A stretch of 62,483 bases of DNA, counting the filler, from Rhabdomonas costata (taxonomy: Eukaryota), in assembly GCA_019059605.1 (NCBI GenBank). It is 14 parts of 14 records of this genome, joined end to end, with 100 filler letters (N's around TTAATTAATTAA, not from the genome) between each part and the next. Parts side by side here need not be neighbours in the genome. Positions count along the whole stretch, not along the records: positions 13,572 to 17,933 come from JAHMHO010000265.1; 13 more parts are not named here. One strand, given 5' to 3'. Below are positions 13,419 to 27,073 of this stretch, piece by piece. Made by a program: the position numbers and the translations under genes. A model generated the notes under the pieces. That model made no database searches, was not told where the DNA came from, and was given only the letters and a program-made list of their open reading frames with translations. Numbering within the stretch: position 1 is the first letter of the stretch; the number at the start of each line of letters is the position of its first letter.

Positions 13419-16400
13419 GCCCCCCTCTCAGTGATGTCAAGTGATGTCAAGTGCAAAAAAAAAAAAAGAGANNNNNNNNNNNNNNNNNNNNNNNNNNNNN
13501 NNNNNNNNNNNNNNNTTAATTAATTAANNNNNNNNNNNNNNNNNNNNNNNNNNNNNNNNNNNNNNNNNNNNGTGTGTGTGTTTTTCAGGCGGCTGACCTG
13601 GGCGGTATGCTGTGCCGGGCTCGGCACGTAAGTTTGCTTTTGTGTGTGTGGTTTGTTGGTGTTGCCGTTCACCAGTTTTGACTTTTAGCTTCGGCTCACT
13701 TTTAGCCCGCTTCCGATGTGCACAAAACGATCTACGATGATTGCCTCGTGTTTCATTGTGTCCCAGATTTCTAGGAGCAAAAGAAATGGAAATAGTGAAT
13801 GTGAATTTTATTCCCCTCTCTGCGGATAAACCGTTTTCGTTTTTATCAGAGGCGATGCCAAACACCAGCCGAACTCTAGGTGTGAACTTTTTGCCTCGCA
13901 CTGATTGTTTTTGCATTCTTCATTGCTCTTCAGTCTGCAGCTTCCCTTCTTGGTCCTGAAGTCCAGCTCTTTGTATCCTCTCGTTCACATGAGAGGGGGC
14001 ATCAAGTGGCGTGCCCAGCATCACCGGGGCGTTCAAAATATGTTCCGCGTCAGAAAAGTGAAAACTCAGACCAGACTCATGCCGTACAAAAACAAAGCCG
14101 GAAACGCGCCTTATGAGCGGTAATCCAGCGAAAAATATATACCACGTTTCTTTCTGTAAGCTCTAATGTACAGCGAGTAAAAATTCTTACGTTTGAGTTG
14201 ACGCGGGCAACCGGTGATGCGCAGTGCCATGTGAGCGGTACGGTTGGGCCATTTGCTTTCTTGCAAACACAAATGTGCTTGTTTGCATATTTTACGCATA
14301 TTTTATAAAAGGCGAGGCCGGCGATAGCATTTGCTATCGGAGACACTCCCAAGGTAGTATTTGCAATCGGCGGCCCAAAGCGGAGCAAATGCTATCGAAG
14401 TCTTACCGGTGGAACACAGTGAAATTCTACCGGACCGTCATCGGGTCCAAACCAAATTTTGTCGTAGTCTTTTCTGTTCCAAGTTAAGCTTTCATAAACA
14501 GAGGCTCAAGGTTGCTCTGGGCAACTCCAACGACCGTGATGGTAAGAAGGGACAGAGTGTGAATGTGGTCCCGTGTGAATCTGTATATGTGGATGTTGTA
14601 TGCTGCCTTGGAATTGCGTCAGATACGGGCCGTTCCGAGACCAGCCTGGCCCCGGCTCTGTCCGCCAGGGCCGCCACCGCCGGAGCCTCGCCGCTTCTCT
14701 CGCCCACAGAGGGGGGCAGTGGCTTGATGCTCAATCTCGACCAGTTCACCAAAGAGGCGTGTGCCTTGTGTTGAGGAAGCTTTTATGGAGAGGGGGCGGG
14801 GGATTCTGTCCTTCCTCATCCTCAGGACCCGTCCCTGATCCCGTTTTATGTTTTTGATTTGGGTGAAGCCTCGTGATTATAGCCTCAGTTTTAAATGTCA
14901 TGGCCCCCGCCATGTCAAAATGTCAAAGTGAGAAGCGAAAAACTACATCCAACGTCACAAGAACGTCGGCAAAGCATCGGCATACCCCAGAAAAGGTAAT
15001 CTGAGTTTTGGAGCTTCCAGTGCTGAAGAGGCAACTGTGCCAAGATAGTTTCAAAAGACGACTTTTTTCCGATTCCTAAACCCCCTGTAAGTCCAAATGG
15101 TCTTTTTTTTGGCCCTACTTTCCGATTATCGCTTTTAAGGAGAAACGAGCATTAGCTTTTTAAATACACCTGTGTTGCCTGCCACCCCTCCTTTCATTTT
15201 TTCGACTAAGAACTCCATTTTGCCTTGGTAGCGGTGATTGGGCCTTTCTGCTATGCAGCCGGACTCCATGGCAGGGGGAGGAGACTTTCGGCGTGTGCTC
15301 CTGGCCGTAGAAACGATTATGCTAACAGGGTTTGCAAAAGAGCACTTTTTCGTTGTACCTAAACAATATTTGATCCAAAATGTAACATTTGGTTACACTT
15401 TTTCCCACGTCTCATTCTTAACGGAATGGGCAATATTTTGTGAATTGACAGTTGCTTCTCTGACAAAAGTATTCTTTGAGCTGAGATGTGCCTTCGGTAT
15501 CTTATCGAAGTGTCCTTGATCACAGACTTCCAGGTGGTGTCAGCCTTCCCCCTGAGCCTTCTCCATTGCCACCGACAGACTCTGCCCGCAAGACAGAGCA
15601 GGTTGCATCCCCTTGGCCTCCTGCTTCTTCTTCTCGTGAATCTTTCATTAGGACCATTGTTCCGTTCCTTGCATGTCCTTCCATTTTCTTCCTAAATGTC
15701 GTTTCTTGGGGGTCGGCTTTGCTTACTGTTTAATCCAGCCCACAGGAACTACTGGTGGTTGTATTATTTCTCGCACCAGGTTCACACCGCCCGGGGAAGC
15801 CGCCTGAAAGTCAGCGGAGGGACTCCCTCCTCCTCAATGCGGAGGTTCGTTTCCTTCCTGACTTTGTGTGGGCTTGTTTCCTTTTTCGGTCTGGGTTTCC
15901 TCCCAGGGAGGCCAGAGCTTTGCATTTTGTGGTTCTGCTTGTTATTATTTGTTCCATTTTCGGACTACAGTGGAGGTGTGATCCCATGACAAGGTTGATC
16001 ACCAACGCGGTCATACAGGTCCTGCACATTCCTGGGTTTTGCATAAAATCTGCTTTTCCTCCCCACCCTCCACCTACACGCACACAGTGCCTGCCCGCGT
16101 CGATGATATTTTTCAGGTCAAGCACAGCCTCTCCTTCCCATCGACCAGTGTCTGCTGGCTCGACATCTTCGGACGATTCCGCTCCACAAACCCGAGTACG
16201 TTTTGCATGTACGGCCGCTGGTTGTTGGTCCCGAGTTGGGCGCAAGTGACTGACTTGGTTGAAGGGTCACCCTTGCGTGTGATTTCAACGGATCAAAGGG
16301 TTGTTTTCACCAATACGCGGCTCCAGAATTTGTTTGCGAGGTCGGTGGGTTGAAACGCTTAGCCTGTGTACTCGTCTGATTCGTTTTTTTCCGCTTTCCT

Positions 16401-16698
16401 GCGAACCTGGGTCAGTTTTACGCTTGTGCCGTGCACATCTATCTGGTACACGTCTGCGAACTCTCCCCTCCTCCTCTCCAGAATTGCAGGCACTCACTTC
16501 CTTTTTGGTCCCAACGCCACTAGTTGGACGCTAGTGGTGGTAAGGTAGGTAGTGGAGGTAAGAGGTTTGAAGGGTTATCCTCCCTCTCCCTCTTGAAATG
16601 CACTATCTCTCTCTATGAAAGAAAACCTTCCCCTCGATCAGTGTAAGGGGATACTTTTCTGAATTACTTTCTTCCGTGATCAAAAGAACGTATGCAGA

Positions 16699-17250
16699 GG
16701 AGACATGATTTCGAGCGTAGCGAGAATGAATGTCGACGTCAGGAGGAACGAAGCGTAGCGAAGTGACGACCAAGGAGCAAGGAACGAGGAACGCAGTGAC
16801 GAGTGACGCAGCGACCAAGGAGGAACATGAGCGAGTGCAACGAAGCGATTGTGACGACCTAGGAACGAGGGAGGAGCGCAGCGACGACCGAGAGACCATG
16901 TATAGGAGGAACGAACGTAGTGAGTGACGACAAGCAGAATATAGTCATGATGTGAAGGAGTGGAAGCACCTTAGGGTGGTGGAACGACTGAACCACACAT
17001 TTAGGAGGAGGGATGAACGCAGTGAATCCCGACGACAGCAAAGAAACATCTTTTATGCCTTTAACTCCACTGTCGGGTCTCTCAGTCCTTCGAGCCCCTC
17101 CCATACAACAAGGAGGCATGAACGTAGTGAATGCCGACAGGATAGCACGAGCGTAGCGAGTAGGAATAGAGGCGAAGGAACGGAGCCGCATCGCGGTGGA
17201 GTGACGTAGCCATCATTCGTAGGGAGGAACGACCGAAGGGAGTGACGACC
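16699..17250 (+). repeat. Array of ~12 strand-specific fold-back hairpins with GNA triloops and tandem G.A pairs
   Basis: Examples: 17004-17036 G-GA-G-GA-GGGAT-GA-AC[GCA]GT-GA-ATCCC-GA-C-GA-C; 16905-16931 G-GA-G-GA-AC-GA-AC[GTA]GT-GA-GT-GA-C-GA-C; 17222-17250 GG-GA-G-GA-AC-GA-CC[GAA]GG-GA-GT-GA-C-GA-CC. Confidence 0.85.
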
Positions 17251-17519
17251 AGCAAAGAACATTATTTTACTCTCTTAACCCCTTCTTCATTCTTTAACCC
17301 CAGTGTCCCCAAGTCGAGGATGCATCTGGAATCGGAGTAAGGTATCGGCATGAAGGCATGGTCGGTACGGACATGCCGTAGTAGGAAGCATAAAGGCATG
17401 AGGGTTGAGGCATGAAGGAGTAAGGCATCTGGGTTTCTCTCTCTGGGTTCTTTCAACCCTCATAGTCATGCTGAGTTACTGCATTCTTCACTCATAGTCA
17501 TGCTGATACCCGTAGCCTC

Positions 17520-17933
17520 ACGAACCCCTCACACCTCAACCCCCAACATCCTGACACAAAGCCCCACAGACACCCCAAGACCATGACACCGTAACACACT
17601 GTAGAAGCACTGACACAGAAACGCAAAGACCATGAGGACGTAAAACCGTGAGACGTAAAAACACGACACCATGAACCCCAAGATCCTGACACGTAGCTCC
17701 AACACACAAGCACACTACAGCCCTTAACACACAAAGCATGAACCCATCCACACAAACCCAACGCACCCTCTGACACAGAAACGCAAGAAGCCATGAGCCC
17801 TACGCTAAGACACACTGACACACACGAAGCACTGACAAAGCACTGACACACACCACCAGCAACCAACAGAACCTCAGACACGAAATGCCACGACCCACCC
17901 TCCAACCACACCCTCAGCCCACCACAAAACCCC
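17520..17933 (+). repeat. A/C-rich degenerate repeat tract (CTGACAC, CCATGA, CCCCAAGA motifs) running to contig end
   Basis: Strong A/C skew on the + strand, with recurring motifs such as CTGACACAGAAACGCAA (twice) and ATCCTGACAC (twice). Confidence 0.7.
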
Positions 17934-20900
17934 NNNNNNNNNNNNNNNNNNNNNNNNNNNNNNNNNNNNNNNNNNNNTTAATTAATTAANNNNNNNNNNN
18001 NNNNNNNNNNNNNNNNNNNNNNNNNNNNNNNNNAAGACATGCTAGCACTCTCAAAATTGGTATCATTCCCTCCTATGCGATTTGGTTTTTCACCGCTCAG
18101 GTTCCCCTGGGAAGGGTGGTGAGTGTATCTGCGATGGAAGCTCGTTTTTTGCAACAGAGGGTAGACGAGCTGGTGACTCTGCTGCATGACATTTTTTGAT
18201 GCTCCTTTTGGCGGCTGAGCACAGTCCGTTGCTGTTTGGTAGGTGTACTGATGTACAATAGCAAAAAGGTTTTCCTGACAATTAGGTGGTGTTTCTTCCG
18301 AGTTTTGACGTCAATAGCATTCGTCCAGCCGCGTCCGTGGGGCTTAACCGATAAAACCGCTCTTGAATAACTAAGTTATCGGGACCCTCGTCTGGGCGAG
18401 CATTCGGGAAGTAAAAGAAATGTGGAAGTCAAAAATCTTTTGAGTGAAAACAGTTCAACATAAAACCGGACTAACATTTGCGTACACACACGAACCCTTG
18501 GAAACGGATTCAGCCAAAATAACCCGTCCCAGAGAGCCTTTCACATTTACATTGTTGCTCTGCGACTGTACCATTGTGCTGCCTGGTGGTGGCAATCCGT
18601 CGGTTTTGCTCGCCCTTTTCTGCTGTGTGCTGGTTTGCCTTGTATCACCAATTTTTTGCCTTTATCCGAATATGTTGTTTCTGGCACCTAAGACAGTCTA
18701 TCGAGCGAATGCGGATCGCCCTAAGTTGTCCCTTTCGTTTGACAGCGCATTTTCGGAAACATTTTTGTTAGAAACGTAGCGGCCGCTGAACCCAAACTTG
18801 AGGACACGGTTGTGTCAAATGTTCTCCGCCGCCTTCCGTCAGATTTTTGAGTTATTATCTTCATTACCATGCCTTACGCCGCCGCGATCCTTGCATAAAC
18901 TGCCCGGCCCACCAGGCGGCCGTGATGGGTAAAGGTTGTCGTTCGCCGGGCGTGCCGTCCGCTCAAAAATCCGCGTGACCATACATTCCGTAAGATCGAA
19001 GGAAATTGGCGATGAGCAGTTGTGTTGTCCGCGTTGGTGGCTTCAATTCGCGTCAGGTTTTGTTTGGGAACTCGGGCGCCATCTTGTTTCAAATCCAGTT
19101 GTTTTTGCGTCCCGACCAGAAACTTTGCAATGCTTCAACCAAAATGGCTCTGCACATGATGGCCTTTTAGATTACGCACCACATCATTCCAACAATTCGA
19201 TAATAACATAACCAACACGGCAAAAAAACATAAGAAATGCCGGAATATCAAAAACATGAAGAACCATGACCTGAATAAAAACATCTGACGGCTCAAGCGG
19301 CAATATTGAAAACCGATTGGTCCTGACCGTTATCTGCCGCAAAACGCGGCGTGGGCAGTAGCAGCCGCACTGATCAATTTTTTCGCCCCGCCCTATCCGT
19401 ATCCACACATTCCGGTCGCATTTCCGTATAACTGGGTAAACATGCGCTTGCAGAGGAGAATATATAATGATATCCAAGCTATTTTTGTCTAAAATTTCTT
19501 GCATAAAAAGAAAACCAAAGACGGAATATTAACCAGTTAGTTCTTAAATAAGAGTCTTGGCAAATCTGGAGATATATTTGCAGGTTATCTGGGACACAAC
19601 ATTTTATTCTACAGCTGAACAGAATCATTCAGGTTTAAGCCAAAGCATGTGGGAGACAGTTTGTGTACAAGACCATAAAAACCATACCACAGTATACATT
19701 AAAACCGGGTAATATAATAGTTAGAAATCCACGGGGACTTTCACACGTAGTTTTGGCGCACGATCAATGGTCATAGGAGCGAAATACCTATGGCTTTTGA
19801 TAAGGCGTGAAAACTAGAAAGCCTCCGAAGCAAGCATTGAGAGTGTGATCTGCAGCTGTATGCCATGACACTTCTACTTGAACTCGGAGTATGTTTGTTT
19901 TTGAATATTTAGCAGAAACACAAATTTTCGGCTTAACGCCATTCCACACCAGCTGTTTGCATACAATTAAGATAAGGATTTCAGCTCAATTTGCAGTAAA
20001 ATATCAGAGCAAGCGATGGCACATTAGCTAATAAAGATAATCAGGCTATCACTCTTTTGCCACCTGTGGTTTCAGGCCAGGTTTTGTGTGGAAGATAGCA
20101 GACAAAGAGTGCATATTTTTTTTTGTAAATTAGCCTGGAAAAAGACAAGATGTAATTGATAACAGTCTTGTTTCAACAGAAAGTAGTGTAGAAAAGCAGT
20201 GTTATCAAATTAGTATTGAACTAATAAATTATGCGCGTCATATTGACGTAGATCCCGATGAGAAGCTTAGACAGAAGATGATACAGACAGTGAGGCAAGA
20301 TGAGGTTGAAGCACTGATACCAGCACACCAGAAACTTCTAGCATTTCTTCACTCTGTAAAAAGCTATATGCAATGTCCCATGAGTTAAAAGTTAGTAATG
20401 AAGCTGAGCCCAGGATACAACAAATCTAGTGTCATGTTACCACATTCTACGATTGATACAATTCAGCAACACGTCACATTCACATTGAGCCTCCAGCTTC
20501 AGTGAAGCAATACACTCCAGTGATGTAGCATTTAGCTCCACTTGAGGAGCTTTTATTCCAGAAGTTATCAGCTAACAACTACTTAGAATACGTTCCATTT
20601 TACTGCGCACAAAACGTACACAACAACTACCCATTATATATGCACGATCATTGTCTCTAACAACAAAACAGTTCCAGATCAACATCCTGAGATTACTGCA
20701 TGGGATATTACTGCACTTTTGAGACTCGTCCGAAGAAGAGGCCAAAAGCAATGCGTTTTCACTATCCAGACATACAACTATGGGCTAATAATCAATGAGT
20801 ATTATATTATTTTGCGCGCAACTGATGGTTTTATTTTACGCTCACTATGCCAGCGCGCGAAAACTTTGTCAACTCAATAACTTCTTGCACTTTCATTAAG

Positions 20901-22709: not shown

Positions 22710-24649
22710 CATTGCTCAGAAGGTTCAGCAGAACCCGCTTCAGACGGTTCGCATCTCCCACACATTGCCGGGGAACATCGGGACGCACCCGTACCACAAG
22801 ATGCAATCCTCCCTCCTCCGCCTTCATCTGCACTACAGACGCAGCCTGCTCAATGACCTCCCGAATGCTGTAAGGCGCGAACTCTAGGTCCAGTCGGTCC
22901 GCTTCCAGCTTGCTGAAGTCCTGCGTGTTGATACGACGGGAAATAAACAAATGTTTCGACAGGAATGCTGCTAGTATCCTGCAACCCACAACCTAAGCCC
23001 AAAAAGAGAAAAGACTTCACACACCAGGATATCGTTCACCAGCAAAAGCATCGAGTCCCCGTTCGAAATAACCGCATCCACGCACTCCTGCTGCCGAAGA
23101 TCAAGAGTCGTGGTGTCACGCAGCACCTGCAAATCAAGAACACAAAGCACAGCAAACAATGAAAACCACAGCCCCATCAGAAAAATCGGGGTGAATGCCT
23201 TTTCCGTTACACCAGTACCTCGGCCATCCCAATGCAAGCCGTAAGTGGCGTGCGCATCTCATGTGACATCACCGCAAAGAAGCTCTCCTTCGCCCGCATC
23301 AGCGCCTGCGTCTGCTCCTCCGCCCGCCGAAGCTCCGCCGTCTGCGCAGCTTCCCGGGCACGCTGCTGGCTGACCTCCGCCGCAGCCTCCATGGCCGCCA
23401 CAACACTCCCGTACAGTGCTCGGATTTCCGTGAATCTCGAGCCCCTGCCCGAGTCCTGGCTCTGCGAGGCCAGGGCGTTCAACTGAGCCGTGCTGCGGCT
23501 TCCACCTCCAAAGAACTCGAAACTGCCCTCTTCGCGCATCAGAGCTTCGCGTAGGTGATCAATGTGCCGATTCAGCATTCGCAGAGGACGCGTCACCAAC
23601 ATGTGCATCATCGCCACGATGGTGACCAGAAACACCACAAGGATCGTGCCAGCTTCAGCGGCTGACACGACATTCTGGCGCCAGATGCGAGAGTAGTAGT
23701 CCGAGTCAGGCAGCACTACTACCAGCCTCCACTGCAGACCACTGGCATAGGTTGCGGAGATCAGCACTTGCAACACCGTCGAGTCCTTAAAGGTCCGAAG
23801 GCGCCGGTGCTGTGGGTCGAGGTTCTGGGGGCTGCTTTGCACCAAACTCTGGACCTCAGCGACATCAGCGTGAAGGGTTGCCGGGCTCGCGGTGGCAATG
23901 GCAATCGGATCCGCTGAGCTCTGATCCAGCAGCAGCAGCATTCCTGAGCTGTGCATCTCGGCGTGCGCGGCATTAAGCTGGTCGGAGAATGCCGAAAAGG
24001 GAAACCCGACATTGAGTACAGCCGCTACAGTATCATTCGGATACCGTACAGGAGATGACACGGAGATTACTTGCGTCCCCGTGACGGCGGTAGAGAACAC
24101 GTAGGTGAAAACAGGACCACCAGCGATGACAGCGTCCCGGTACCACGGCCGTAGCCGGCCTTAGTACAGTGATTTGGCGTAAACGTCTCCCATAGATCCG
24201 TTGTAACTCCACGCGGTCATGTTCGCAAGTACCCCCAGGGGAGCAGGGGGGCGGTAGGTTACGCCCAGACTCACTCCTGAAGCACTGCTACTGCTGTGTC
24301 TGTTGACGGCACCGATGGCCTCCCCATTCGGACGTACAAAGAACATCCCGTCCGCAAGCGGGCTATGGGTCATCACCTTGGAGGTATAGGCTTGAAGCTC
24401 CTCTGGGGTTAGGTTGGGCAGCCCGGGAATGGCCTCCCAGGCGTTCAGAGCGGACATCATCTGGCCCAGCACACTCCGAAGACGGTGCTCCAGGTCGTGC
24501 ATCACCGTTGCGCGGAACACGGCACAGATGTCTCCCACGGAGGACAGCGCGGCCTGGTTCTGGGTTATCCACAAGCACGTCGCGCATGCTCCCGTAAAAG
24601 CGAGTACCGCAAGAACAAAACACAGCCAAAGAGGGACGGTGCGAGGCAT
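22710..24649 (-). CDS. Membrane sensor histidine kinase (TM - Cache-like - TM - HisKA - HATPase_c start); in-frame TAA at codon 163; 3' part truncated
   Basis: Exons 23219-24649, 23025-23126 and 22710-22920. Cache-type RPWY motif, H-box FFAVMSHEMRTPL, LLVNDIL|DFSKLEA, N-box GDANRLKRVLLNLLSN. Confidence 0.88.
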
Positions 24650-27073
24650 CTCGTGGAACAGTATTGTGCCCGCTGCAAATGAGGCTCAAGGAAAGTAGAC
24701 AAACAAAACAAAAAGAAAGGTGCACTGATGAGCGAAAAAAACATCAGCTCTATAGCCAGCTGATTCTCACCCGCTTTTGCTAAGAAAATACCGGCGTGAG
24801 AAACAAAGGATTGTGGGAGGTCTGACGCTCACTGTCACCTGAAATGGGTTTGCCTCAAGGTGAAAGTCATGTGGCGGTGATGGTGAGGGGGTGCTGGCGC
24901 TCAGTTTAGAAGGTGGACCTGGAAAAGGATACAAAGTGTTGACAACGAGAGAAATGTCCCAAATGTCCTGCCGCCATCACTCGACTCCACTGCAAAAAGA
25001 CACGTGAGCGCGACCTCTTCAACCTTTCAACGTCGCTCTCACGGGTCGTTATTCAGAGTATGTGACTTTCAGTCATAATAAAAACCCATAGGTTTCGCTG
25101 CACAGCATATATCAAAGCTAATAAGCTCATTACAGCATATCACGTTGACTGTCGCGCAGCGAGTTAATATTAAAATATGCAGCTATCAGCTTCGTCTCGG
25201 CGTACTTTCAACACGCCAACTTGGAACTGAGCTTACTAACATCGAAGACAAAACACTGCGAGCGGCCGTCGGCGCAACACCACTTGCAGAAAAAAAAATA
25301 AGTGAGACATGGCACCCGTGCATCAAATTGACAGCTCTTGCCCGTTTGCGAAGCAATCAGGACCCACTATCACCAACACCATCACCCACGGATAGAAGCA
25401 GGCTTCAGAGGTAGCCAGGAAACTTATCGCGAACGACGCGGTCGAATGGCATTGCGAGCTGCGAAATTCTTAAAGAGCGGGGTGCTAGCAGGACGTGATG
25501 GGTCCCTGATGGATCCCCCCGGTCCCCGGATCAGCCAATGCCAGACGGAAGCTCCTCTTCTGCAGGTGCCCCCTCCCTTCCCCCCTCACTCTTCACTTCT
25601 GCAGCCGATGTCCCCATTAGTGTCCAAGGGTCCGATTTCCATCGCGCCATCTAACTCAGCTTACTCGGCCACTGCACAACCAGTTCATTGCGTCCTTTTT
25701 TTATGATCGTCACTGAGATGGTTTCGTTGGTGGAGGAATTTATAGAGCCCTGAAGAGTTCAGAATCAGCTTTCACTCTGTGCAACTCCCCCACTACCTTC
25801 CGTCTTCGCTCCTGGGGTGTTACTAACCACACTCATACGCGACATTTGTGAGGAGGGGCGCTTCCTCCAGTTTGCATCGGTGTGCGTCTCAAAGTTCAAC
25901 GGCATCAAAATACCTGCCCCTTGGCGCCTGTATAATGTGGCTGCTCATTTTTGCCTCAGCGGTGGAACGTCGCCACGCTCGCCTCCTTGCCAGCCCGCCT
26001 CCCGGCGGCCCTACCGCCCTCGCACTGGCAGCCATGACAGCAGCGGGAGGTCTGCGTAGATTACGCTCTTGTCTCAAGTCTCCTTTCTTTGTGAACCTTT
26101 TGCTTCCTCGCGTCTTGCAAAGTAGTGTGTGGGGTGTTAGAACCAGCCACCGCGGTGCGCAGCAGCACCACCCAACACTACTTTACAAAAGCCGCTTCCT
26201 CTGATGTTTTGTAGCAAACAGGGTCGCCTGTGGTAGTTCTGGTTGCATTGAACGTGCCAAGAAGTGAAGAACGTTAGTGAGCGATGGATCAGGCTAACGT
26301 TCCTACATTTTGTCACATTTCGTCCCTTATAAACAGTTCCAAGATTGTTCATTACCTTGCAAACCCTGTGATTCTTCCTCAGTCGCGGGAGTGCAGGGCG
26401 ACCGCCTCTCCGCACTCGTCCCCACAGTGGCACCCGCTCCTCTCACTCCCGTCTCCCCACCGCCCACCACTCTCCCAGCTGTGCACATGCCACACGGGAG
26501 GGGCAAGAGGTTGGGCTTTGCCCGCTCCACCACCGCCCATCGGTTCGCTCCCCTCGAACTTCCACCTCACCCCACCCCTACACCGGAACCAGGGACCGCT
26601 CTCGGTACTCGTACCCCGCTCGTGGGGCGTACGGGGTACACCGCGGGGCACCGATGAGGGGCTACGGCTCTTCAGAGTCGGGCAGCCCGTCCTGTGAGGG
26701 AGGGAAAGGATACGATGGGGATCGGCGGACGAGTGGTGAGCGGCGAGGGGCGCCCGTGAACCCACCGGAAAGGGAAGGCCTCGGGAATCGGCATGAGCGT
26801 GTGCCCTCCTATGACAAAAAAACNNNNNNNNNNNNNNNNNNNNNNNNNNNNNNNNNNNNNNNNNNNNTTAATTAATTAANNNNNNNNNNNNNNNNNNNNN
26901 NNNNNNNNNNNNNNNNNNNNNNNTGTTCGGTGTGTTTGGGTGTTGTTGTCAGACGTGAAGATATAAAACGGCTGTGAGAGACACCCGAAGTGCTTGCGGA
27001 CGGGCAAAACGTCAGTTTTGCAGTCCGCTGCGCTGTCCTCCACGTTACGGTTCGGCTTGTTCTGTGTGCGCAG

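Follow-up and report, generated by a model that had tools for sequence, protein, structure and literature searches.

Rhabdomonas costata, a eukaryote, carries on one small contig of its draft genome (NCBI GenBank assembly GCA_019059605.1) a purine-rich stretch that reads like a low-complexity GA repeat, and the question it raises is whether this stretch folds and, if so, what keeps the fold in place. An earlier reading of the bare letters (the original prediction) had parsed positions 16699–17250 into twelve back-to-back hairpins held together partly by G.A pairs. The window, meaning the whole stretch of DNA analysed, is 62,483 nucleotides long and joins about 14 small contigs of 4.3–4.5 kb through linkers of 100 nt each (N44, TTAATTAATTAA and N44; for example at 17934–18033); as the joined contigs are unrelated, any gene neighbourhood seen across a linker is meaningless. 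The array spans about 0.7 kb of non-coding DNA within one of them, an unplaced contig of 4,362 bp (13572–17933; JAHMHO010000265.1). We find that the array grew via duplication of one-unit, two-unit and ~215-nt blocks, and that its units provide good comparative evidence, at the level of sequence, for real folding of such purine-rich mini-hairpins in cells.

About 13 units of 27–43 nt lie head to tail on the purine-rich + strand. Each is built outwards from a C-[G-N-A]-G triloop through one or two Watson–Crick pairs, a step of 5'-GA opposite 5'-GA, and further Watson–Crick blocks and GA steps, and most end in a conserved clamp with GGAGGAAC as the left arm and GTGACGAC as the right arm. A strict scan (gapless, Watson–Crick pairs with tandem 5'-GA/5'-GA between them, zero mismatches, at least nine pairs) recovered six perfect hairpins of 12–15 pairs in 16699–17250. 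Three of these have six Watson–Crick pairs and three tandem GA each, namely the H3 core (16781–16807, GCA loop), the H5 core (16866–16892, GCGCAGC at its centre) and the 27-mer H6 (16905–16931, GTA loop); the others are H8 (17004–17036; nine pairs and three tandem GA, GCA loop), H9 (17112–17138; eight and two, GTA loop) and H12 (17222–17250; seven and three, CCGAAGG core).

The remaining units also lie on the + strand. H1 (16699–16737) is nested, with an outer 5-bp stem, GA/GA, a 4-nt block containing one T.T, a second GA/GA, GC/GC and a GTA loop, and H2 (16742–16770) joins the clamp to a GCGTAGC core through a GAA/GAA step. H4 (16819–16858) consists of the clamp and an inner hairpin with a 2x3 loop (one bulged A), its GCA loop being closed by T:A. 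H10 (17147–17161) is a 15-nt mini-hairpin with a GCGTAGC core between GA/GA steps and is 90% identical to the inner part of H1 (direct-repeat family D17). H7 (16957–16988) is weak, a 4-bp Watson–Crick stem with a TTAG loop in a GGA...GAC frame, and H11 (17171–17211) has a 5-bp GC stem and an ATC loop in a GA-containing frame. A thirteenth unit, H13 (17353–17379), was found by a relaxed scan; its outer stem is that of H9, its inner part is mostly Watson–Crick and its loop is GTA. All twelve originally listed stretches thus fold as described, with three corrections: the outer part of H3 (limits 16774–16815) is unpaired, H4 requires a bulge, and H7 and H11 are plain short Watson–Crick stems.

The number of hairpins exceeds what base composition and neighbouring-base frequencies would give, as the original prediction had proposed should be checked against shuffled controls: dinucleotide shuffles contained 0.02 strict hairpins on average and one at most, so that none of 300 reached the six of the real sequence. 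Control rules that replaced the GA step with AG/AG, AA/AA or GG/GG, or allowed Watson–Crick pairs only, returned zero hairpins each on the real array. Seven strict matches were found across the 62-kb window on both strands, six of them within the array, and the other 58 kb contained no further array copy or inverted terminal copy. These scans are gapless and therefore undercount bulged units. A relaxed rule (two mismatches, wobble, loops of 3–7) discriminated weakly: it gave 8 hairpins where shuffles averaged 3.65 and reached 8 at most, and it covered 267 nt where no shuffle exceeded 221. The array escapes standard tools, its units being reported neither by Tandem Repeats Finder (TRF) nor, as anticipated, by an inverted-repeat finder.

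The arms of the units covary. When ten units were registered from the loop, the left arm of each formed 9.4 pairs on average with its own right arm and 1.8 with the right arms of other units (0 of 20,000 permutations). In an ungapped alignment of ten 27-nt cores, standard pairs made up 56.7% of paired cells against 36.9 ± 2.8 in shuffles, changes on both sides occurred at 9 of 12 pairs, and the covariation score was 0.476 against 0.140 in shuffles and 0.06–0.14 for slid partners, none of 500 shuffles matching the real alignment on any of the three measures. The 120 paired cells comprise 66 Watson–Crick, 47 G.A or A.G, 2 G.T and 5 other combinations (115 compatible in all), and the G.A cells sit at fixed positions. 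Conservation is greatest at the loop G and A, the closing C:G and the first GA/GA step, and the pair between these last two (11–17) is A-T in four units, G-C in four and C-G in two, with zero unpaired cells.

The history of the array can be read from its duplicated blocks. H2 and H3 together are 86% identical to H4 and H5 over 70 aligned positions (score 61, shuffle maximum 42), and a ~215-nt block made of H8 and its spacer recurs as H12 and its spacer, with 84% identity over 92 aligned positions (score 52, shuffle maximum 27). The spacer copies lie at 17036–17068 and 17250–17282 on the + strand, each being identified both as a direct repeat and in the block alignment; the direct-repeat families in the array are D1, D2, D10 (the spacer), D11 and D17. 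Head-to-tail units with shared ends and block duplications are features of a minisatellite, and TRF itself is silent here. Hairpins of duplicated blocks differ on both arms and yet each pairs, as with AC/GT in H3 and GC/GC in H5, so the array grew by tandem duplication and the fold was retained in the process of later change. Because these post-duplication changes retained pairing, it is the fold and not the sequence that is conserved. Own-arm fit, covariation score and block comparison all agree with the compensatory covariation first proposed, and the compensatory changes between duplicated units likewise uphold a constrained, strand-specific fold on the purine-rich + strand.

The loops and GA steps follow a grammar with precedents among DNA hairpins. 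Ten of the twelve originally listed units do have G-N-A loops, as had been claimed (GTA in five, GCA in four, GAA in one), the exceptions being H7 (TTAG) and H11 (ATC). The closing pair is C:G in nine of these ten loops and in all nine gapless cores, H4 with its T:A being the exception. Across the ten aligned cores the loop G13 and A15 are invariant, the N between them varies, and the inner GA/GA step is kept in nine. The motif counts are one-sided: exact GCGNAGC cores occur four times on the + strand of the array and never on the − strand, and CG.AG occurs 17 times on + and once on − within the 552 nt. The 23 GA steps divide into seven in a pyrimidine-GA-purine context, 15 of the RGAR/YGAY kind and one mixed.

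The excerpted account of PMC3201870 describes d(GNA) triloops as very stable only with a C:G closing pair, worth ~3 kcal/mol over G:C. GCGNAGC mini-hairpins, in the part of PMC13037366 consulted, melt near 76 °C, are markedly more stable as DNA than as RNA, and are found at the phage G4 origin, at ssiA (core CCGAAGG) and in phage N4 promoters. Nuclear magnetic resonance structures summarized in PMC10085684, again an excerpted source, show DNA hairpins composed mainly of alternating G:C and tandem sheared G:A pairs, in a symmetrical pyrimidine-GA-purine context, that are stable above body temperature. The loop design of the array, G-N-A closed by C:G with four exact GCGNAGC cores on the + strand, is therefore of the type reported to be extraordinarily stable in DNA (PMC13037366 and PMC3201870, as excerpted), in line with the stability originally ascribed to it.

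Computed energies say less. Turner RNA parameters, in which tandem GA loops have scores, give the proposed structure as the fold of lowest energy for every + strand unit, and the summed unit energy is −84.6 kcal/mol on + against −43.1 on −. Individual + strand RNA values include −9.7 kcal/mol for H1 (z-score −2.5), −9.6 for H8 (−2.4), −15.3 for H11 and −9.8 for H13 (−3.4). The DNA parameter set has no term for mini-hairpin stability and does not recover the GA steps. As standard models give no exceptional stability, support for the fold comes from pattern and covariation and not from computed energy.

Similar hairpins recur elsewhere. A 19-base pattern derived from H6, H8 and H9 had 0 matches in viral contigs and 18 single matches in 596 Gb of prokaryote genomes. 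Seven of the 18 were fully hairpin-compatible at the four free pairs, against 0.5–0.6 expected (P about 1e-6), and these seven are not independent, two sharing a genome and three a phylum; they come from Omnitrophota (L006, L014 and L017), haloarchaea (L002, L010 and L003) and Robiginitalea (L005). Six of the others had one mismatch and five had more, and we discarded two of these not fully compatible matches as the ribosome-binding site and GTG start of a biotin carboxylase gene. At L006 (3508–3684, − strand) a tmRNA gene is followed by the hairpin 55 nt beyond its 3' end, and at L017 (2755–2909, − strand) the hairpin is 3' of a tRNA gene; gene and hairpin share a strand in both. Both of these Omnitrophota loci carry GAA-capped hairpins zipped by GA steps, with outer Watson–Crick/G.T stems, after a terminator-like hairpin.

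A 22-base clamp pattern matched four metagenome loci and one viral locus, four of the five obeying the grammar at free positions, with a chance expectation for metagenome and viral matches that is rough. One metagenome contig (L020) contains a 27-mer identical to H6 (27/27), 155 nt 3' of a tRNA gene. The 27-mer belongs to an insert of ~200 nt (in the interval 222–511) that consists solely of small hairpins and is flanked by a 14-nt direct repeat of the tRNA 3' end, an arrangement that recalls a small integrated element. The phage contig L049 (1700–1835) has, between two co-directional open reading frames (ORFs), an H12-like hairpin that ends one base before the start codon (ATG) of the following ORF; it contains two GGAGG-like motifs and could be a translation-start structure. 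Another locus (L019) has four intergenic GA hairpins in 1.8 kb, and a Nocardia record (L028) has H12 with the clamp GA step swapped for Watson–Crick pairs. A near-identical H12-type hairpin occurs in L022, which we rejected as a comparable array since its hairpins are on both strands; positions 1–2694 of that record alternate very AT-rich palindromic stretches with GC-rich C-GNA-G clusters (30 + 30 CG.AG in 2.7 kb) and look organelle-like or giant-virus-like. Comparison by blastn with 72,556 plasmids and with 50,697 phages yielded a single match per set, of 27–30 nt (E 0.04 and 0.6) and confined to one hairpin, and a Microvirus match (L027) was set aside as lying inside a coding region and not being hairpin-compatible. 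All four look-alikes with a readable context (L006 tmRNA, L017 tRNA, L020 tRNA and L049) carry the GA strand in sense orientation relative to the adjacent gene.

Within Omnitrophota, the core motif was enriched in two of three genomes, with counts of 295 against 66 in the reversed control (G001) and 102 against 42 (G003), and not in the third (G002; 41 against 57). A link to REP sequences and RAYT transposases was considered and rejected: Y1_Tnp is present in G001 and G003 only, and no GA hairpin flanks those genes. The strict gapless scan found one hairpin in 273,895 nt sampled from G001, where the stems of the family are bulged and cannot be scored by such a scan. That genome contains an imperfect-palindrome repeat family (L029–L048; for example L030, L031 and L037) centred on a GCGAAGC mini-hairpin between GA steps. 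As similarity among look-alikes is confined to 27–31 nt, we take them to represent a common design rather than demonstrated homologues. That one hairpin design, once as an identical 27-mer, recurs in contigs of prokaryotes, phages and metagenomes that are otherwise unrelated speaks for convergence on a single fold.

What, then, is the array? We tentatively favour, at somewhat less than even confidence, a structure-constrained hairpin repeat of the REP, RHE or mini-hairpin kind that was locally amplified by tandem duplication. The purine-rich strand would fold once single-stranded, and its pyrimidine-rich partner would be unable to fold likewise. The setting may be DNA at replication or transcription, to which we lean slightly because the loop design is the DNA-stable one, and RNA is possible. 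Persistence and local amplification would both depend on the fold, by way of slippage at folded units or of recognition by a protein; the array would not be the origin or end of a hidden replicon.

Several observations weigh against this reading. Folded as a whole, the region has no excess stability over shuffles (z-scores of +1.79 for DNA+, +0.49 for DNA−, −1.46 for RNA+ and +0.23 for RNA−), nor has it any when pairs are limited to spans of 45 nt or less (RNA+ −0.23, DNA+ +1.15), and folding unit by unit likewise did not beat shuffles; as RNA, several of the perfect units reach no more than −1.5 to −2.8 kcal/mol and are thus marginal. The conserved clamp holds most of the 15 GA steps (of 23) that read GGAG/CGAC or GGAA/TGAC, and since this is not the validated pyrimidine-GA-purine context, the sheared geometry of the clamp is putative. 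The units are paralogues and their hairpins are not independent events, so the shuffles overstate independence. The array is a single locus with none in the other 58 kb of the window, hence without sign of dispersal or mobility, and comparison of the ten contig ORFs with Pfam revealed no transposase or other gene near it. Finally, most contigs of the window begin with 10–25 nt of G/T only and finish in C/A only (for example 13572–13590, 17900–17933 and 26924–26950), termini that we presume to be untrimmed degenerate primers from whole-genome amplification and that bear on the reliability of the assembly.

A reasonable possibility, though on balance not a likely one, is that the transcribed + strand forms RNA hairpins, serving as transcript-end, processing or protein-binding signals in a non-coding RNA, an intron or an untranslated region. 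It is kept alive by the RNA-parameter folds, which reproduce the proposed structure for all units and favour the + strand over the − strand as given above, and by the sense orientation of all four readable look-alikes; a few G.T pairs are present as well. The energies cut the other way too, with zero excess over shuffles and the marginal units already noted. Rfam 15 covariance models had 0 matches in the contig at the gathering score, and at E up to 10 gave two chance-level matches only (E 3.8 and 6.7), neither inside the array; a tRNA search of the contig with ARAGORN found none. The loops, moreover, are C:G-closed G-N-A triloops and not the GNRA or UNCG tetraloops usual in RNA, and mini-hairpins of this design are markedly more stable as DNA in the excerpted PMC13037366.

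Broader than the favoured reading, and rather doubtful, is the idea of a cross-domain class of strand-specific mini-hairpins, a 'GA-zipper' with a C-GNA-G triloop, tandem G.A steps and a clamp of the GGAGGAAC/GTGACGAC type. Such a class might have arisen several times over, or spread horizontally, among bacteria, archaea, phages and R. costata, where it would take the form of a 13-unit array, because it would act as a single-strand signal for widespread priming, transcript-end or recombination machinery.

The original prediction had gone further, to a selected single-stranded DNA structure acting as the origin, priming site or terminus of an unrecognised virus, episome or mobile element, and here it is upheld only in part: the fold is strand-specific and constrained, and we found nothing that ties the array to any of these roles or elements. 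We regard such a signal as improbable. In its favour, the fold is under constraint, packed G-N-A hairpins resemble the telomere palindromes of Streptomyces (PMC4513846, in excerpt), and individual units resemble the mini-hairpins of the G4 origin, of ssiA (whose CCGAAGG is that of H12) and of the N4 promoters (PMC13037366, in excerpt). The linked genes that might accompany an element of this sort (HUH Rep, PolB, primase or helicase) are not recognisable in the 4.4-kb contig, nor are a terminal-protein gene, Tap or any other polymerase; its largest ORF is at most 171 aa, and none of its ten ORFs has a Pfam family above threshold. The array is not terminal: 683 nt (554 nt if H13 is counted) separate it from a contig end of primer-derived look, and the window has no second or inverted terminal copy. 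Viral scans gave 0 matches with the 19-base pattern and one with the clamp pattern, and the phage and plasmid matches were to single hairpins at E 0.04–0.6.

A coding origin of the repeat was also rejected. Open frames of 113, 117 and 96 aa run over the array on the − strand, have no Pfam match and are unremarkable because T/C-rich sequence is expected to give them; the units do not have lengths divisible by three, and complementary arms are not something that a coding sequence would lead one to expect.

Very unlikely, in our judgement, is a double-stranded cis-regulatory module in which clustered binding sites (TGACG, CATGA and GGAGGAA) were amplified as a promoter or enhancer repeat and the hairpin look is incidental. 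Words are indeed enriched on one strand over 16699–17933 (CGTAG 27-fold, CATGA 11-fold), CATGA occurring at 7–16 per kb throughout that interval against ~1 per kb elsewhere, and TGACG is found seven times on + and once on − within the array. Binding sites, however, predict conserved bases and not the covarying arms seen at pair 11–17 and in the own-arm fit, and the Pfam comparison of contig ORFs showed no nearby gene to regulate. Least probable of all, and unlikely in plain terms, is an amplification or assembly artefact, or neutral arm-to-arm correction in a slippage-prone minisatellite without functional constraint, for which the primer-like G/T starts and C/A ends of most contigs and the position of the array in low-complexity sequence near a contig end speak, and against which stand the perfect Watson–Crick inverted duplications that chimeras would give in place of a GA/GA grammar with 47 of 120 G.A cells at fixed positions, the 3.1 kb of complex unique sequence upstream of the array in the same contig, and the same design in unrelated public contigs.

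Around the array and elsewhere in the window we noted further features. A run of AGGCATGA-type repeats surrounds H13 at 17340–17430, with a TRF period of 15 at 17393–17428. Beyond it a C/A-rich low-complexity tract on the + strand (17441–17933; A 0.36, C 0.38, G 0.14, T 0.13) adjoins the purine-rich array and runs to the contig end; it is ~490 nt long, 74% C/A, and has GACAC, CATGA and CGTA(A/G) as one-strand words. Other contigs encode a histone, a pyruvate carboxylase fragment, an SBF transporter and a Cache histidine kinase. The pyruvate carboxylase fragment has 87% identity to a metagenome protein and ~56–66% to the eukaryotic proteins listed, reaching ~70% only with transcriptome entries, values that we read as fitting a eukaryotic, probably protist, source. 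An open frame with Cache and HisKA domains (23207–24160, − strand) lies on a contig of 56% GC and could be a eukaryotic hybrid kinase or bacterial contamination.

To our knowledge, in-cell evidence for G.A-zipped, G-N-A-capped mini-hairpins has come almost entirely from oligonucleotide biophysics. To this the array adds comparative evidence, in that duplicated units keep the fold through two-arm changes with G.A steps at fixed positions. The recurrence of the design in prokaryote, phage and metagenome contigs, in three cases shortly 3' of a tRNA or tmRNA gene, suggests that palindrome finders, energy models and Rfam overlook a class of structured repeats. If the fold is a true signal on single-stranded DNA or RNA, its grammar would be new and easily searchable; if the array is merely a selfish or slippage-prone repeat, it would still make a clean natural test set for the thermodynamics of tandem G.A in DNA.

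A full-text literature search, which was not aimed at that question and is weak evidence, turned up no description of an array of this kind. The nearest known systems are compared with it here, each through excerpts of the sources cited. Closest in loop design are the DNA mini-hairpins (PMC13037366, PMC3201870), with which the array shares G-N-A loops in 10 of 12 units, C:G closure in nine of ten and, in H12, the CCGAAGG core of ssiA. The known examples are single and lie in phage or plasmid origins and promoters (PMC13037366), whereas here ~13 units form a head-to-tail series in the non-coding DNA of a eukaryote and carry GA/GA extensions. Closest in stem chemistry are the CGAG-block hairpins of the human AUTS2 promoter (PMC10085684), which also form on a purine-rich strand from alternating G:C and tandem sheared G:A, in a context shared by 7 of the 23 array steps. 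AUTS2 is a simple CGAG repeat; the array differs in its G-N-A caps, its covarying paralogues and the 15 of 23 steps that are GGAG/CGAC or GGAA/TGAC.

Telomere palindromes of Streptomyces (PMC4513846) likewise present packed, successive one-strand hairpins with GCA loops closed by sheared G:A, and their fold is a single-stranded protein-binding scaffold. They occupy the extreme 3' terminus of a linear replicon, have Watson–Crick stems and work with Tap and Tpg, whereas the array is internal to its contig, has GA-zipper stems and lacks linked genes. Pericentromeric and centromeric satellites of the HSat3 type (PMC11014236) are purine-rich tandem repeats in which one strand folds with non-canonical G.A pairs; they are long, homogeneous and of short period, in contrast to 0.7 kb of heterogeneous units with covarying stems and triloops. 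In mode of occurrence the nearest parallels are REP/REPIN sequences, organellar RHE and yeast mitochondrial GC clusters (PMC2800124, PMC3116915), short imperfect palindromes of non-coding DNA that keep their stems while the sequence varies, occur singly or in tandem and, in the excerpts cited, have no agreed function. Those are dispersed multi-copy families, some with a RAYT transposase, whereas the R. costata array, with 0 more copies in the other 58 kb of the window, is seen as one local cluster in seemingly nuclear DNA whose stems are stepped with GA/GA.

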